Assembly: GCA_031284745.1 (NCBI GenBank)
Contig: JAITXJ010000033.1
Coordinates: 1-21,992, forward strand
DNA from: Acholeplasmatales bacterium
GTDB lineage: Bacteria > Bacillota_I > Bacilli_A > Acholeplasmatales > Acholeplasmataceae
Length of the DNA: 21,992 nt
Direction: 5' to 3'
Shown: piece by piece, positions 10,184 to 16,862 of the stretch
Position numbering within the stretch: the first letter of the stretch is position 1
How the letters are laid out: every line of letters begins with the position of its first letter
Notes under the pieces: generated by a model
Databases searched by the model: none
What the model saw: the letters and a program-made list of their open reading frames with translations, nothing else
Told to the model about the DNA's origin: nothing
Made by a program: the position numbers and the translations under genes

Positions 10184-10564
10184 ATGGATCAAAAATATTG
10201 TTCTAATTGTGGAAGACCATTGGAAAATGGAAGTCAATTCTGTGCAGATTGCGGTTATCGAAACGGCGCAGAGGAAAGTTATACCCCAGCAAATTCCTTG
10301 AATGTTCTTAGTTTAATTGGTTTTATTTTATCTTTTTTACAGCCAATTGCGGGACTCATCATTTCGATTATTTCCCTTAAAAAGCCAATATTAAATTCGC
10401 GAGATAAAAATTTCTCGATTGCTGGATTGGTTATTTCCATTGTTGGCGTGGTAGGGATGATAGTTAGCTTTTTCTTTTTGAACTCGATAATAAATGCTAT
10501 TGTTCAATGGGTGGAAAATACTTACGATAATTTTTTATCATCATCGTCTTTTCGATTTTTTTAA
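10184..10564 (+). CDS. Zinc-ribbon (CxxCG...CxxCG) + DUF4190-like small membrane protein, paralog 1.
   Basis: N-terminal CSNCG...CADCG zinc ribbon. Hydrophobic helices with a GLIISIISLKKP-type motif typical of DUF4190. Confidence 0.75.
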   Translation: MDQKYCSNCGRPLENGSQFCADCGYRNGAEESYTPANSLNVLSLIGFILSFLQPIAGLIISIISLKKPILNSRDKNFSIAGLVISIVGVVGMIVSFFFLNSIINAIVQWVENTYDNFLSSSSFRFF

Positions 10565-10676
10565 AAAAAATGGCGAGTTCAGACATTAATTATTTTATTA
10601 AATCTTTTTTATTTGAATTAAATTATTTGATATAATTATTTTTGATAACTATTAACAAATAGTAGAGAGGAGTTTT

Positions 10677-11024
10677 ATGGCAACAAAATTTTGTCCAGCG
10701 TGTGGGAAACCCGTTAATGAAGAAAATATCATCTGTCCAAGTTGTGGACACAATCTTTCGGCGATTTCCAGTGTAGAAAGCGAAGTCGTCCATGATGATG
10801 GTCCGGCAATTACCGGTTTCGTTTTTTCGTTTATTTTTTCTTTGGTTGGTTTAATTCTTTCGGCGATTGCCTTAAAGAAACCTAATATTAGTCACCGAGG
10901 ACACGGCTTTGCTAAAGCGGGGCTAATTATTTCCATTGTTGGTCTCGTATCTGAAGTAATTGCTTCAATTATAATTATATCATTGGCGGGAACAATCGCT
11001 GCTTTCTTTGCGGGAGTCGAATAA
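10677..11024 (+). CDS. Zinc-ribbon + DUF4190-like small membrane protein, paralog 2.
   Basis: CPACG...CPSCG ribbon. GLILSAIALKKP motif. SD GAGAGGAG. Extended -10 TGaTATAAT at 10628-10636. Confidence 0.75.
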   Translation: MATKFCPACGKPVNEENIICPSCGHNLSAISSVESEVVHDDGPAITGFVFSFIFSLVGLILSAIALKKPNISHRGHGFAKAGLIISIVGLVSEVIASIIIISLAGTIAAFFAGVE

Positions 11025-11500
11025 ATAATATTTTAGTTATTCTTTTAAGTAGTTAAAGTAAGCTAAAGTAATTTACTCGTCAAAATCAATAATAAAGTCT
11101 TTAAGAACTTATAACATAATCCCTTTGGTGATTTTTTTCGTGGTAAGGAAACATTCGTTTATTTTGTTAAAAAAATAAACTTCTTACGTAATATTATTTG
11201 TATATAGTGATATAGATTACACACAAAAGAAAATTAAATCTACTTATAACAAACTATGAAAGATCGAAGAAATATTTATAATAACTAAAACTGCTCTTTT
11301 ATAGAGACTTAGCATATAATAACTCATTTTTATATGCTATTTAAATTTATTTATCATTAGATTATATTAATACAAACGAAAGTTACTTTTAGAAGTTACT
11401 TTAGGAAAGAAAGATGACTACTTCCGCATGAGGATTTAGTTTTTTGTGGTATAATTTTATCGATAACACTATGAATAATAGTTTAGTTAAGGAGATTAAA

Positions 11501-11836
11501 ATGGTCAACTATTGTCCCTGTTGTGGGAATAAAATTGAAGATAATGAGAGATTTTGCGCAAAATGTGGTTTTAGTGTTCAGACAATTCAGGAAGAATATT
11601 CTCCGGCTAATAATGGTTTAAGCATTGTCGGTTTTGTTCTTTCCTTTTTTATTTCGATTGCTGGGCTGATTATTAGTGCGATTGTTCTACATAAAACACC
11701 AATTAGTAAAAGAGATCATGCCTTTGGGAAAGCGGGACTAATAATTAGCATTATTAGTTTAGTTACGATAATTTTATCAATTATTTTTTGGATTATATTT
11801 TATTTTCTTATTTTAAATTTTGCAATTATGTATTAA
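11501..11836 (+). CDS. Zinc-ribbon + DUF4190-like small membrane protein, paralog 3. The true start is probably MVNYCPCCG; the ORF-track frame extends to 11444.
   Basis: AAGGAG SD 8 nt before ATG 11501. Extended -10 TGgTATAAT at 11447-11455 lies inside the longer ORF-track frame. Paralogs 1 and 2 start just before the first Cys pair in the same way. Confidence 0.7.
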   Translation: MVNYCPCCGNKIEDNERFCAKCGFSVQTIQEEYSPANNGLSIVGFVLSFFISIAGLIISAIVLHKTPISKRDHAFGKAGLIISIISLVTIILSIIFWIIFYFLILNFAIMY

Positions 11837-11891: not shown

Positions 11892-13289
11892 TTATTTACC
11901 TTCTTTTTTAGGTTCATCTTCTTTAACTAAATATTCAGGAAGTTTTAACCCAGCGCTTTTATATAAATCTTGAAGTGGAGGAATGGATTTTAATAATGAA
12001 GAAGCAAAATTGCTAGTACTAGAACCATCCTTACTACCATTACCAGAATCCCAAACCGTAATTTTGTCAAACTTTAAATTCTTAATAGCATCAACTTGGA
12101 TAGTGACTAATTTTTCCAGTTTGTCGGTAATTAGCATTTGAATAGCTTCAGCCGATCCCCCAGCCGATTCTACTAGTTTCGCAAACCCCAGTGCTTGTTT
12201 GGAAAGAATTTCATAAGTACCTCGGGCCTGAGCATCATATTTGGAGTATTGAGCATCCGCTTGACCTTTAGCTTCGCGTCTGATTTGTTCGGCTAAGGCT
12301 TCCGCATCAATGATTCGTTTTTCTTTTTCGATATTAGCATTAACGATGACATCAGCTTCGAGGGTAGCTTTTTCTTTATCGCTACGAGCCTTTTCGGCTA
12401 ACTCTTGAGCACGGTAGGCTTCTTCTTTAGCCTTCGCTTCGGAAATTAATTCGGCGGCTTTAGCTTTTCTTTCGGCTTCGGCTTGTACTTCACGACGGAT
12501 AGAACTAGATTGAGCTATTTTTCCTAAAGATTCATTTTCACCTTCAATGGCTTTTGAATTAGCCACAGCTACTTCAATTCTTTGATCTCTTAAAGCGTTA
12601 GCTTCACCAATGGAACCATCACGATTTTTTTCCGCGACGTTTTTCTTTGCTTCGTTAATTACTTTAGCAGCGGCTTCTTTACCAAGCGCCTCGATATAAC
12701 CATCAGCATCTTTAATGTCGGTGACGTTAACGTTGATTAAACGCAGACCAATCTTTTTAAGTTCGATTTCCACATTTTTGGAAACTGATTCTAAGAATTT
12801 ATCCCGATCGGCGTTGATTTCTTCAATCTCCATGGTCGCGATGATTAATCTTAATTGACCTAAGATGACATCCTTGGCTAATTCTTCAATGGCGGTATCA
12901 TTTAAACCTAATAATCTTTCAGCCGCATTTTGCATTACCCCATTTTCGGTGGAAATAGCTACGATAAAGTTGGAAGGAACATCAATACGAATGTTTTGTT
13001 TGGAAAGAGCACTTCGTAAATCAACTTTAATGGAAATCGGCTTTAAACTAAGAAAAGTATATTGTTGAACGAAGGGCACAATAAATTTGGTACCTCCATG
13101 CAAACAAAGAGCACTTCTTGTTGAACCATCTTTGTTATTTTTAATTTTACCAGATACCACCATAATTTTATCACTAGGACATTTTTTAATTCGACTAATG
13201 ATGATAAAAAAGGCACTAAAAAAAACTACCACGAATAGAATACTAAGTCCTACCCAACCAATTGTACTAATTGCTGCAAATGTTAACAT
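11892..13289 (-). CDS. floT: Flotillin-like SPFH/band-7 protein (FloT/YuaG-like).
   Basis: N-terminal TM segment, SPFH domain, C-terminal Glu/Ala-rich coiled-coil repeats (AEAERKAKAAELISEAKAKEE). SD AAGGAG. 12-nt gap after nfeD. Confidence 0.88.
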   Translation of the reverse strand: MLTFAAISTIGWVGLSILFVVVFFSAFFIIISRIKKCPSDKIMVVSGKIKNNKDGSTRSALCLHGGTKFIVPFVQQYTFLSLKPISIKVDLRSALSKQNIRIDVPSNFIVAISTENGVMQNAAERLLGLNDTAIEELAKDVILGQLRLIIATMEIEEINADRDKFLESVSKNVEIELKKIGLRLINVNVTDIKDADGYIEALGKEAAAKVINEAKKNVAEKNRDGSIGEANALRDQRIEVAVANSKAIEGENESLGKIAQSSSIRREVQAEAERKAKAAELISEAKAKEEAYRAQELAEKARSDKEKATLEADVIVNANIEKEKRIIDAEALAEQIRREAKGQADAQYSKYDAQARGTYEILSKQALGFAKLVESAGGSAEAIQMLITDKLEKLVTIQVDAIKNLKFDKITVWDSGNGSKDGSSTSNFASSLLKSIPPLQDLYKSAGLKLPEYLVKEDEPKKEGK

Positions 13290-13301
13290 ATTTTTTTCTC
13301 C

Positions 13302-13910
13302 TTATACTTTTTCGACAACGAGGATGTTGTCTTCTTTTAAACTAACTATTTTTACAAATGTTCCCGGTAATAAGTCTTCGGTTTCATTACTTACGGCGTC
13401 AACCTCAAGATACCTATCATTAAACTGCACTATTATTTTACCAGTTTGTCCATTATTTGGAATTTTAATGTATACTGAGGCTTGTTTTCCAATCGAATAA
13501 CGATAATCTAAGTTACCATTTTGTTCTAATTTATATATTTGCTTATAGAGTAAGGCTACTAAAACGGCAGAGATTGCTCCCGCACTAATACCAATGAGTA
13601 AGGATGCCCACCAAGGAAGTGCTTCATTTAAAGCAAAACTTGCCCAACCCATCACCCCCAGAAAGACTAAAGCCCCTCGTAAAGTAAATAAGCGAAAACC
13701 GGAAATAAAGGATAATGGCTCGTCATTGGAGACATCCACGGAATTTACGGCTCCGCTTGAGTCAAAATCACTGGCATCAACATCGTCAAAATCGGCATGA
13801 CTTCCGAGACTAACGATCGATAAAATCAAAAATATTAATAATATTCCACTGGTTGTTGTTGCAACGATGAACATTGCTTGTTGAAATCCACTTAAAGTTT
13901 CCCACCACAT
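13302..13910 (-). CDS. NfeD-like membrane protein (YuaF-like), partner of flotillin.
   Basis: N-terminal TM helices plus a C-terminal beta-rich OB-like domain. Sits upstream of floT as in the B. subtilis yuaF-floT operon. A strong SD, AAGGAGGA, precedes the internal ATG at 13910 (MWWETLSG...). The ORF-track frame extends to 13946. Confidence 0.78.
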   Translation of the reverse strand: MWWETLSGFQQAMFIVATTTSGILLIFLILSIVSLGSHADFDDVDASDFDSSGAVNSVDVSNDEPLSFISGFRLFTLRGALVFLGVMGWASFALNEALPWWASLLIGISAGAISAVLVALLYKQIYKLEQNGNLDYRYSIGKQASVYIKIPNNGQTGKIIVQFNDRYLEVDAVSNETEDLLPGTFVKIVSLKEDNILVVEKV

Positions 13911-14192
13911 ATGAAATCCTCCTTGTCCACAATAATATTCTATCATATAAAGAAGGTGATCATTACCAGATTATCGAATAAGAATTCTTCTTTAATAAAT
14001 GTAGTATATGTAGTATACTAATTCTTATGAAAGATATTTTTCTTATTATGGCGAAGTATGGTATGATATTAGTCCAATTAGATAAGATGGGCCTAGGTAA
14101 CGAAATAATCTTGCGGCTGTTTTGCTTAATTTAGCGATAGGCAATATATACATATAATCGAGGGCTTCAAAGTTGTGTAGTATAATAATATT

Positions 14193-15689
14193 GTGTTTAT
14201 TAAATTAGTAAAAATCCCGAAAAAAAATACTCATTATGTCCAAGTAGTGGAAAGCTACCGTGATGAAAATCAAATACCTCGTCACCGAGTTTTATATTCT
14301 TATGGAATTTTAGAAGAAATTCAAAAAGAACGTCCTAATTTTTTAGAAGAATTAAAAGAGAATTTAAAAACTGATTTTATTGATTTTAAGTTAGATCTCT
14401 TAAAAGAACATACCAATACCATGGAAAATTATGGTTATATCATCATCGATAAGCTGTTGAGAGAACTAAGTTTGGATAAAATTATTACTCATTATTGTAA
14501 AGATAATGACGCAGCTTATCAATCTTTGTTGCAGGTTTTAATCTTTCGAATATTACAAACAAATTTAAAAAATCCCTTAGATAAGTTATTTAATTTTAAT
14601 ATCAAAAATCCTTCGATAATCAAAGAGGACTTGCAAAAGATTATGTCTTATCAAGAAGAAATTATCAAGGATCTCTATCAAATTAATAAAAGTCATATCG
14701 ATCGAAGTGATGTGATGTGTAATGTTGTGGATTTTTATTTAGAAAAGGATACTAATTTAACAACTCCCGAAATTGAGCACCATGTTACTTTAACCCTTTT
14801 TAGTGATATTTTAAAGCAACCGCTTTATTATAGTATCAAAGCTCATTTAGAAATGCGAGACAATACCGATTATAAAGAGGTAATTGAGATAGCGAGAACC
14901 ACATTAAATTTGGATGATATTACTTTAGTTGCAAAAAAAGAGGGCGTGAATTCCCCCTTAATCGAAGTAAAATTTGCCCAAAATAATTATTATATTATGG
15001 GCTCTTTAATCAAAAACGCTGAGCATCCATACTCGAGTATCGCCAATGACAAAGCTTCCTTTAAAAGTTTACCAAGCAAGGGAATTAGTTATAAATTAGT
15101 CACCCTACTAAGAGATGTCTTTGTGGAGACTAAATCCGGGAAAATCTTTAAAAAAACGCTAAATGAAAAGGTTTTATTACTATTTTTTACTGATGAAGGC
15201 TATGAATTGAATAAGGCCCTGAGTTTTTTATTAGAAGAAAATTTAAATATTGATTTAGAAAATTATTTATTTATCAGTGCGAAAAATGAAGTCCACAAAG
15301 GATTAACTTTTTATAGTATTTCCACCAATGATTTAGATCTTTCTTTTTATGATATTATTAATAAGTATCTTTATTTGCAACAAGTTAAACACGATTTTTC
15401 TGAACACTTTGATGAAGAGATAAATTCCGTGGCGCTTAATTTCTTTCTGAATTATTTAGTAAATATGTTTAACACGACGATTGTACGCCTGAGCGATTAT
15501 AAATACTCCCTAAAAAATATCTATGAGTCTTTAAAACTGGCTAAGTTAATTAAAATCCGATCTGATTTGGTGATGATCACTTATTTAGATCCGCTTTTAA
15601 AAATCCTCCTATCAAAATGGGAAATAGAATTAACTAAACAATATTATCGAAGCGAAAAACTTCGTCGCATTTTTAAATCAATAAGCTAA
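14193..15689 (+). CDS. IS1634/IS4-family transposase-like protein (498 aa), possibly an orphan or domesticated copy.
   Basis: N-terminus KKNTHYVQVVESYRDENQIPRHRVLYSYGILEEIQKE matches the characteristic IS1634-family N-terminal motif, as recalled from memory. Candidate DDE residues are LDDITLVAKK (first D), LLFFTDEGYE...YLFISAKN (second D, DRGY-like region) and YSLKNIYESLKLAK (degenerate Y-2-R-3-E-6-K). GTG start with no SD, placed 7 nt after a TATAAT at 14181-14186. Confidence 0.5.
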   Translation: MFIKLVKIPKKNTHYVQVVESYRDENQIPRHRVLYSYGILEEIQKERPNFLEELKENLKTDFIDFKLDLLKEHTNTMENYGYIIIDKLLRELSLDKIITHYCKDNDAAYQSLLQVLIFRILQTNLKNPLDKLFNFNIKNPSIIKEDLQKIMSYQEEIIKDLYQINKSHIDRSDVMCNVVDFYLEKDTNLTTPEIEHHVTLTLFSDILKQPLYYSIKAHLEMRDNTDYKEVIEIARTTLNLDDITLVAKKEGVNSPLIEVKFAQNNYYIMGSLIKNAEHPYSSIANDKASFKSLPSKGISYKLVTLLRDVFVETKSGKIFKKTLNEKVLLLFFTDEGYELNKALSFLLEENLNIDLENYLFISAKNEVHKGLTFYSISTNDLDLSFYDIINKYLYLQQVKHDFSEHFDEEINSVALNFFLNYLVNMFNTTIVRLSDYKYSLKNIYESLKLAKLIKIRSDLVMITYLDPLLKILLSKWEIELTKQYYRSEKLRRIFKSIS

Positions 15690-16862
15690 ATTAAGGATTT
15701 TTAAGATATCCTCTTCATTTAAGATTTTTAAGCCTCCCAGCGTTCGAGTTTTAAGACCAAACTCCGTGGTGGCCGCTTTAGCCAGTTGTCCAAAACTACT
15801 TGGAGGAATGTTAACTTCTCTTAACCTAGTTTTGAGGCCAAGTTTTTTACTAAAATTTTCGAGTTTTAAAATGGCTCGGAGAATTAATTGGTCCTCACTT
15901 TCGTTTTTATGAGCTTTCAAACCCATGATTTTAGTTGCAAAGTTGATAAATATTTTTTTATTTGTGGGATAAACATATTTCATCCAGGCCGGAGTGATAA
16001 TGCTAAGACCCAGCCCATGGGCAATATCAAACATCGCACTTAATTCGTGTTCAATTTGGTGACTAGCCCAATCAGTTACTCTTCCTGCTCCCAGCAGGCC
16101 ATTATGAGCTAAAGTGCTCCCTAAAGCTATTTCACTCCAAGCCGCATAATTAGTATAGTCTTTATTGACAATTAAGGCATTGCGCATGATGCTTCGCAAA
16201 ACTGCTTCACTAATGCCATCGATCACATCGTTATTTGTTGTATTACTGAAGTAACGTTCAAAAATATGGCTCATCATATCAAAGACTCCCGCTGAAAAAT
16301 CAGCTTTTGGTAAGGTATAAAAGAATTCCGGATTAATAATACTAATATATGGGCGAATAGCATCATTTTGATAACCGATTTTTTGTTTCGTTGCGGGGTT
16401 GGTAATAACCGAGGAACTCGAATTCTCACTGCCAGCGGCTGGAATGGTGAGGATAGCGCTGACCTTTAAGCAGGCTCGTGGGGTATGGCGCTGAATATAA
16501 TAATAGTCCCAAACATCATCAGTGATTTTAGCTCCTAAAGCAATGGCCTTAGCACTATCGAGGACCGAACCGCCACCGATTGCTAAAATATGATCAACCT
16601 TCGCCTCCACACAGATTTTAATGCCCTGGTAGACTAAATCAATTCTTGGGTTTGGTACCACTCCTCCGAGGGTTAAATATTTGATTCCCGCCTTGGTTAA
16701 AGCGTCCGTTACCGCCAGTAATAAGCCACTATGAACAATTCTGGGACTGCCATAGTGAATTAAAACGATTTGGGAAACATCTTTTAAAAGATCCCCAATT
16801 TGTAAGTGTGAGTTAGCTCCGAAAACTATTTTTGTGGGTGTATATAAACTAAAGTTGTTCAT
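15678..16862 (-). CDS. Iron-containing (Fe-ADH family) alcohol dehydrogenase.
   Basis: GGGSVLDSAKAIA glycine-rich NAD-binding motif. 394 aa. His-rich metal-binding region (HQIEHELSAMFDIAHG). Confidence 0.9.
   Translation of the reverse strand: MNNFSLYTPTKIVFGANSHLQIGDLLKDVSQIVLIHYGSPRIVHSGLLLAVTDALTKAGIKYLTLGGVVPNPRIDLVYQGIKICVEAKVDHILAIGGGSVLDSAKAIALGAKITDDVWDYYYIQRHTPRACLKVSAILTIPAAGSENSSSSVITNPATKQKIGYQNDAIRPYISIINPEFFYTLPKADFSAGVFDMMSHIFERYFSNTTNNDVIDGISEAVLRSIMRNALIVNKDYTNYAAWSEIALGSTLAHNGLLGAGRVTDWASHQIEHELSAMFDIAHGLGLSIITPAWMKYVYPTNKKIFINFATKIMGLKAHKNESEDQLILRAILKLENFSKKLGLKTRLREVNIPPSSFGQLAKAATTEFGLKTRTLGGLKILNEEDILKILNLAY

Follow-up and report, generated by a model that had tools for sequence, protein, structure and literature searches.

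Host genes derived from DDE transposases, which are named for an aspartate-aspartate-glutamate catalytic triad, are mainly eukaryotic, and SETMAR/Metnase, FHY3/FAR1, DAYSLEEPER and PiggyMac are examples. To our knowledge, such domestication is well documented in eukaryotes, whereas bacterial cases have rarely been described. Inactive copies of bacterial insertion sequences (ISs) are normally deleted quickly. The transposase-derived host genes of prokaryotes include the TnpB-derived TldR regulators, the tyrosine transposases associated with repetitive extragenic palindromic (REP) sequences (RAYTs), and the Piv invertase; TldR has lost its catalytic residues and acts as a DNA-binding repressor. 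Our literature search for domestication or inactivation of IS1634 transposases found no relevant report. Here, we analyzed a 498-amino-acid (aa) open reading frame (ORF) in a stretch of 21,992 nt (hereafter the window), which is a complete contig of a metagenome-assembled genome (MAG) annotated as Acholeplasmatales bacterium. The ORF lies between an nfeD-flotillin gene pair and adh, a gene for an iron-dependent alcohol dehydrogenase (Fe-ADH). We consider that it probably encodes a domesticated, catalytically dead IS1634 transposase that would bind DNA and possibly control its own divergent promoter region.

The NCBIfam model of the IS1634 family (NF033559) matched the 498-aa protein, whose database label is 'hypothetical protein LBV55_03380', at 26.1 bits (E 4e-6) and over residues 29-282 only. 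This is below the curated cutoff of 100 bits; canonical IS1634 matches score 125-362 bits. The Pfam models DDE_Tnp_1 (PF01609) and DUF4277, proposed as a check in a preliminary description of this DNA, did not match the protein even at E <= 10, and the sole Pfam match at that threshold (ALIX) was spurious; canonical relatives score 29-55 bits for PF01609. A phmmer search of 1.84e9 representative proteins returned 39 matches (1e-14 to 1e-4), which were canonical IS1634 transposases of 550-580 aa or N-terminal fragments, and the nearest canonical transposases are about 21-29% identical to the 498-aa protein. Among about 15e9 proteins there were only two close relatives, both encoded on Acholeplasmatales-type metagenome contigs: P0005 (481 aa; locus L002 in the MAG Acholeplasmatales Zx50_bin8, JAITXV01) and P0003 (507 aa; locus L001, a 3.7-kb JGI contig from the same metagenome as P0005). 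These two score 21.7 and 40 bits against the same 100-bit IS1634 cutoff, have no Pfam DDE match, and cluster with the window protein in 296 of 300 neighbor-joining (NJ) bootstraps.

When the three-member clade was compared with nine canonical IS1634 members by hhalign, the two groups aligned end to end over 495 columns (probability 100%, E 4e-43), and residues 61-498 by themselves matched canonical transposases (E 2e-9). On these alignments, we regard IS1634 ancestry along the whole length of the protein as secure; phmmer, hhalign and the weak NCBIfam match agree on the family that had first been proposed. Like canonical members, the protein has the N-terminal signature M-F-I-K-x-V-K ... Y-V-x-x-V-E-S-Y-R-D ... 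R-H-R, the same domain order over its full length and a Tn5-like predicted fold, and it keeps the NYGY, P210, YK-x-x-x-x-R and TNDL-x-LS-x-x-x-II-x-x-Y motifs. Unlike them, it is ~65 residues shorter, with deletions between the second catalytic Asp (D2) and the catalytic Glu, and after the Glu motif. Whether started from the 498-aa protein or from the profile of all three members, a word-indexed protein search recovered one canonical transposase and otherwise only the query itself, and a PDB sequence search with the 498-aa protein gave nothing meaningful. Neither did PADLOC and PHROGs, hence we see no link to defence systems or phages.

We assigned the catalytic columns by alignment with canonical IS1634 transposases, and BLASTP, MAFFT and hhalign agreed on the assignment. 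In the window protein the two Asp columns and the Glu column are occupied by N177, K248 and K399 (Table 1), and the motif just upstream of the Glu column, TNDLDLS..DII..Y, is retained. D/D/E is present in 11 of the 16 other full-length family members of the same alignment. The equivalent residues are a gap, E248 and H408 in P0003, and Y165, N234 and E396 in P0005; since they differ among the three orthologues, these positions are unconstrained. As read from the alignments, the DDE triad is wholly absent from the window protein, rather than modified. With all three catalytic carboxylates replaced, the protein should no longer be able to cut or join DNA, and the element should not be able to move. 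The preliminary description had instead seen a DDE-like core with altered Arg positions. Every peptide that it quoted is present (YVQVVESYRDENQIPRHRVLYSYG at residues 15-38, LDDITLV at 240-246, FTDEGYE at 332-338, YLFISAKN at 358-365 and YESLKLAK at 444-451), but the D and E motifs lie elsewhere than FTDEGYE and YESLKLAK, and it is the three catalytic residues themselves that have been replaced.

We also noted other full-length IS1634-family proteins without some of the catalytic residues. These are P0007 (locus L015, 1865-3541; catalytic E to H), which is one of seven members of a cluster found on NCBI contigs as long as 28 kb, P0020 (catalytic columns Y/K/Y), P0011 (second catalytic Asp to H) and P0019 (first catalytic Asp to Y); P0038 is listed alongside them. 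Full-length inactivated IS1634 transposases may have a wider spread than the window locus.

Terminal inverted repeats (IRs) were sought by comparing the upstream intergenic DNA with the 3' flank and scoring the pairs against 200 shuffles. This calibrated flank-to-flank search found no convincing terminal IRs around the ORF. The best pair was a perfect 11-nt IR (CTTAATTTAGC at 14125-14135 and GCTAAATTAAG at 15685-15695) that was equalled or beaten in 10 of the 200 shuffles. We rejected it as a pair of IS ends, as its right arm, which runs across the ORF stop, is native adh coding sequence; it probably arose by chance. We also rejected a 16-nt IR near the left insertion boundary (I20, 13956-13971 and 15565-15580, 14/16), because its score is in the shuffle range and its right arm falls within the ORF, which runs on for another 36 codons to a C-terminus still alignable with canonical transposases. 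By contrast, the positive control, a canonical IS1634 element in locus L006, gave perfect 16-nt IRs (153-168 and 2175-2190) that only 1 of 200 shuffles reached. The same test at the two orthologous loci gave nothing above chance. The inferred boundaries of the insertion (13947 and 15677) showed no direct repeat; the right one is eroded, such that any original duplication would no longer be detectable.

Copy number was judged from protein and plasmid databases, a survey that unassembled copies could escape. The 90% cluster of the 498-aa protein comes from one contig only. We found no paralogue among the ~15e9 proteins, where no other protein reaches even 31% identity, and a tblastn search of plasmids with the 498-aa protein gave no match. 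Pattern scans of genomes and metagenomes recovered only the L002 contig and the canonical IS1634 elements L005-L007, which served as positive controls. As an aside, the 24%-GC element of L005 (JALVSY010000010.1, 2031 nt) closely resembles that of L006, which is on a JGI metagenome contig; L005 is filed under a 'Pyrodictiaceae archaeon' MAG, and an IS1634 element in the MAG of a hyperthermophilic archaeon is most likely a binning contaminant.

The gene is therefore an IS1634 derivative that fails as an IS1634 element: it scores 26 bits against a hidden Markov model (HMM) cutoff of 100, has N/K/K in place of DDE, is single-copy and lacks terminal IRs. It also differs from canonical members in showing no detectable direct repeats and in being fixed at an orthologous chromosomal site. 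It could still be argued that it belongs to an active, unrecognised IS subfamily with unconventional catalytic residues or ends, which inserted independently at similar sites; the ORF is full-length and has a promoter-like element, and the ends of IS1634-family elements can be short and hard to see. However, the catalytic columns of the three proteins read N/gap/Y, K/E/N and K/H/E with no alternative active site conserved, the gene is single-copy, none of the three loci has IRs while the control IS shows a 16/16 pair, there is physically no right end, and the shared flanks described below argue for one ancient insertion. We regard this possibility as very improbable and close to refuted. The earlier statements that the element has no terminal IRs and is not an active IS are thus borne out. 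The word 'orphan', which had also been applied to it, fits the copy number but not the phylogenetic setting, given that two syntenic orthologues exist.

In L002, P0005 is encoded divergently beside nfeD-flotillin, as in the window (NfeD 56% and flotillin 72% identical). In L001, the 3' end of the P0003 gene meets the 3' end of a convergent Fe-ADH gene in a 4-nt stop/stop overlap; in the window the ORF likewise converges on adh, and the 12-nt overlap first reported there is confirmed by the coordinates of both genes (Table 1). By position and similarity, the three genes can be taken as syntenic orthologues, with L001 the weaker case. Flanks shared among the loci argue for one ancient insertion.

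We then asked how the locus looks without the ORF. Using the flotillin protein as a query, we compared the contigs of the nearest relatives. Locus L009 and the window are collinear over uppS, cdsA, dxr, rseP, adh, nfeD and flotillin (46-76% identity; adh 62%, nfeD 62%, flotillin 76%) and also over pepF and asnB. In L009, 31 nt separate the adh stop from the start of nfeD, and they contain no ORF, so nfeD and adh are indeed adjacent in a relative that lacks the gene, a comparison that the preliminary description had called for. More distant nfeD-flotillin loci (L010, L012/L013 and L014) have other neighbors and no such ORF. A closer relative, L008 (flotillin 87% identical), is on a contig that ends within nfeD. 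In the window, adh is the final gene of a uppS-cdsA-dxr-rseP-adh run and forms the right flank of the insertion, while nfeD and flotillin (11892-13910, minus strand), which are divergent from the ORF, form the left flank.

Junction alignments between the window and L009 defined the boundaries of the insertion. The native adh-nfeD spacer AATAATATT[C/T]TATCAT is common to both and extends to position 13946 of the window, and the native end of adh starts at 15678; together, these place the inserted DNA at about 13947-15677. The 3' end of the ORF, S-I-S followed by a stop, is simply the antisense of the native adh L-A-Y-stop, and P0005 ends at the residue equivalent to K495 of the window protein. 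Since the last codons of the frame are antisense to the adh end, and P0005 stops at the K495 equivalent, the whole right end of the IS has been deleted up to the end of the frame, in keeping with the earlier remark that there is no room for it.

These observations leave two broad possibilities, which had been named together at the outset as 'domesticated or decaying': a gene retained for its product, or a decaying IS remnant without present function, whose ORF is still open by accident and in which selection, if any, would act on the inserted DNA in cis (for example, as an nfeD-flotillin promoter). Several features would suit decay. Nothing remains of the triad, the IRs or the right end, the orthologues are far more diverged than their neighbors (24-31% versus 56-72% identity), the window gene has a GTG start without a Shine-Dalgarno (SD) sequence, and the insertion separated nfeD-flotillin from its upstream operon, which makes a role in cis plausible. 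The GC content of the ORF is 28.8% (28-30% over 14001-15500) versus 37-42% in adh and flotillin, as expected for weak constraint combined with AT mutation bias; the low GC of the inserted gene is equally consistent with foreign origin.

Against decay stands the state of the reading frames. Four-fold degenerate sites in flotillin are saturated: window and L002 are 40% identical at such sites (36% expected), and window and L009 43% (38% expected). Unconstrained DNA would hence be randomised over such divergence. Nevertheless, the three orthologous ORFs (481-507 codons) contain no stop or frameshift, while their other five frames contain 29-82 stops; from base composition, the probability of finding no stop by chance is about 1e-16 to 1e-20 for the three ORFs. 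In addition, the N-terminal domain is selectively conserved, with 49-58% identity among the three orthologues over residues 1-60 and 14-26% over the rest, and with 23 of the 61 invariant columns falling in residues 1-54. In two lineages, deletions took away the whole right end but went no further than the final ORF codons, and a full-length profile match is retained together with a confident, Tn5-like AlphaFold2 (AF2) fold prediction. Stop-free ORFs despite saturated neutral sites, together with a conserved N-terminal domain, favor domestication over decay, and we consider a functionless remnant unlikely. These patterns point to purifying selection on a non-catalytic protein, which would be strongest on the N-terminal domain and weak relative to the neighboring genes.

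In the Tn5/IS4 superfamily, the N-terminal domain binds the element ends. By analogy, the N-terminal domain of the window protein is presumed to bind DNA. One use of such binding could be repression of related mobile elements: the protein might occupy IS ends, or join active IS1634 transposases in mixed multimers, and so act in a dominant-negative manner, for which Tn5 Inh and the P-element KP repressor are precedents. Retention of the N-terminal domain and of the whole scaffold, including the C-terminal region, with only the chemistry lost, would agree with this. On the other hand, no cognate active element is known and none is seen on the three contigs, and at ~21-29% identity to the nearest canonical transposases recognition of their ends by the protein, or its assembly into multimers with them, is unlikely. 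Such repression thus seems quite unlikely to us, less likely still than decay. It would differ from Tn5 Inh in another respect, because Inh comes from the transposase gene of an active element, as a product truncated at the N-terminus, and the gene here is a fixed chromosomal one.

If the protein is instead a host DNA-binding protein, as we favor, its expression and its targets come into question. The GTG at the head of the 498-aa ORF had been called the only plausible start, just after a TATAAT. An in-frame TAG at 14178-14180 blocks any upstream extension, and the orthologues share both start and spacing: in L002 the same 11-mer, TGTAGTATAAT, is followed by 6 nt and an ATG, and in L001 TAAAAT is followed by 6 nt and an ATG. 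All three proteins begin M-F-(I/V)-K-L-V, and the start position is fixed by this homology. No SD sequence precedes the GTG in the window, whereas nfeD, in the same intergenic region, has the strong AAGGAGGA. Likewise, canonical IS1634 members have an SD (GAGGAG before the start codon in the L006 element), in contrast to the window gene with its -10 box directly before the start codon. Given that the nfeD AAGGAGGA shows SD sites to be in use in this genome, a conserved leaderless layout is the best reading for the ORF. We infer expression from a leaderless mRNA, as had been predicted, from the -10-to-start spacing that both orthologues conserve.

The same intergenic region contains repeats that may be of regulatory interest. 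There are three exact copies of TGTAGTATA in the window, all within 14000-14184 (a tandem pair and a third copy at 14176), where 0.19 are expected and 0 of 100 shuffles reach three. In L002, a tandem TGTAGTAAA-TGTAGTATA lies at the promoter and an inverted GTAGTATAA on the nfeD side. Since nfeD-flotillin lost its connection to the rseP-adh unit through the insertion, the promoter of nfeD must now lie in the inserted left-end DNA, and the palindromic AGTATACT could serve as its minus-strand -10 element. Separately, we noted a 35-codon ORF (14027-14134, plus strand) encoding MKDIFLIMAKYGMILVQLDKMGLGNEIILRLFCLI before its stop, and preceded by TGTAGTATACT and 7 nt, the same -10-before-start layout as that of the main gene; L002 has nothing equivalent to this part of the intergenic region.

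We propose the following history. An IS1634-family IS would have inserted into the 31-nt adh-nfeD spacer in an ancestor of this Acholeplasmatales-like group, in the orientation opposite to the operon. The right end was later lost as far as the final codons of the transposase gene, and no left IR survives. Replacement of all three catalytic carboxylates (N177/K248/K399) would have ended cutting, joining and mobility. The gene would then have persisted as an exapted transposase, encoding a full-length and foldable protein that retains the transposase shape and is best conserved in its N-terminal domain; this protein would most likely work as a non-catalytic, sequence-specific DNA-binding protein. 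Expression would run from the conserved -10 box 6 nt before the start codon, as a leaderless mRNA. A plausible target is the protein's own intergenic region, with the nfeD-flotillin promoter and the locus-specific TGTAGTATA repeats. A more specific version, in which an exapted DDE regulator with an end-binding N-terminal domain and a dead Tn5-like scaffold, translated from a leaderless mRNA, governs the promoter region created by its insertion for nfeD-flotillin (a membrane-microdomain operon), is one that we offer tentatively, as a possibility rather than an expectation.

Several points weigh against domestication and against the regulatory role. The family has three members, all on metagenome contigs and two of them from one sample, and long-branch attraction could inflate their NJ clade. 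The link to L001 is weaker, in that its adh fragment shares only 29% identity with the window adh across 89 residues (and 38% with the adh of L009) and its upstream neighbor is unrelated. By flotillin and NfeD identity, L009, without the ORF, lies slightly nearer to the window than does L002, with the ORF; either the identities mislead, possibly through the extreme AT bias of L002, or one loss or a second gain is needed. The protein diverges far faster than its neighbors, which also fits very relaxed constraint, and dN/dS (the ratio of nonsynonymous to synonymous substitution rates) is beyond computation at the divergence of these orthologues. The AF2 input alignment held canonical transposases, and the predicted fold is partly inherited from them. 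Finally, the TGTAGTATA motif is not in L001 and was picked post hoc. Of the two possibilities first named, we nonetheless favor domestication, as three lineages have preserved an intact ORF over a divergence that saturated neutral sites.

The features discussed are listed in Table 1. We rejected the weak terminator-like hairpin near the end of the ORF as a terminator, as it lies inside the ORF before the stop and such matches are no commoner than in shuffles. With no terminator between the ORF and adh, the convergent transcripts should overlap in antisense.

Table 1. Positions of the gene, its functional landmarks and its flanking features in the window
Feature	Position	Strand	Remarks
Transposase-derived ORF	14193-15689	+	498 aa, GTG start, single copy, catalytic triad lost
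N-terminal ~60 residues	14193-14372	+	three beta-strands and helices; best conserved part, presumed DNA-binding domain inherited from the transposase
Codon N177, first catalytic Asp column	14721-14723	+	canonical Y-D-V-T-N-Y-Y-F-E; here MCNVVDFYLE
Codon K248, second catalytic Asp column	14934-14936	+	canonical VADKG; here VAKKEG (LVAKKEG)
Codon K399, catalytic Glu column	15387-15389	+	canonical L-x-x-I-E-x-x-F; here LQQVKHDF
-10-like box TGTAGTATAAT	14176-14186	+	TATAAT at 14181-14186, 6 nt before GTG
Tandem TGTAGTATA (two copies)	14000-14017	+	candidate operator/promoter element
Inserted DNA relative to L009	13947-15677		1731 nt; boundaries +/-3 nt; native adh stop at 15678
Terminator-like hairpin	15648-15674	+	weak, 5-bp stem and T-run, within the last 14 codons of the ORF; rejected as terminator
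ORF/adh overlap	15678-15689		12 nt, convergent 3' ends
adh, Fe-dependent alcohol dehydrogenase	15678-16862	-	Pfam Fe-ADH and ADH_Fe_C match reaches residue 393/394
nfeD-like gene	13302-13910	-	likely true start ATG at 13910, SD AAGGAGGA
Flotillin	11892-13289	-	Band_7 domain

Elsewhere in the window, three consecutive small genes (10184-11836, plus strand; 126, 115 and 130 aa) each encode an N-terminal zinc-ribbon domain, one of them together with DUF4190, and this trio sits in a low-GC (24-33%) stretch just past the flotillin 3' end at 11892. Rfam and tRNA scans of the window gave no match. The window Dxr (349 aa, 18462-19511) and UppS (197 aa, with a Pfam match in two stretches) are short for their families. 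On the L009 contig, dxr (5534-6537) is called as two short ORFs of 125 and 151 aa, each matching half of the window Dxr, and cdsA likewise matches the window in two pieces, which suggests pseudogenisation or frameshifts in that contig.

Compared with eukaryotic domesticated DDE transposases, the window gene is alike in its transposase origin, lost terminal repeats, single copy and syntenic orthologues in diverged genomes, and, as far as sequence can tell, in an ORF that stays open beyond neutral expectation and a presumed DNA-binding domain that is its best conserved part. It is unlike them in being bacterial and IS1634-derived, in having three orthologues, and in its very fast evolution. With TldR, RAYTs and Piv it would share the reuse by the host of a transposon nuclease or recombinase scaffold once mobility was lost. 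However, those proteins belong to other folds and families (RuvC/TnpB, HUH and DEDD, respectively), the window locus has neither a guide RNA (no Rfam match) nor REP-like repeats, and a regulatory role is hypothesised here by analogy, unlike that of TldR. Tn5 transposase (PDB 1MM8) has 6% sequence identity to the window protein and keeps its DDE triad. Collectively, the window gene appears to display the structural and evolutionary features of a domesticated transposase.

Even if the gene were functionless, it carries a warning for annotation, as the 498-aa protein falls under every transposase HMM threshold. The locus is also a clean evolutionary case, with an empty site, defined boundaries, three syntenic orthologues, a lost triad and lost ends, and a presumed DNA-binding domain that has been kept. 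A functional protein would mean that recruitment of IS proteins as host factors is within the reach of small, streamlined Mollicutes-like genomes, and the locus would then offer a tractable model of operon rewiring by an IS, in which nfeD-flotillin was split from the rseP-adh unit and supplied with new divergent promoters. Should the protein prove to be a regulator, it would be a prokaryotic counterpart of the eukaryotic transposase-derived transcription factors.

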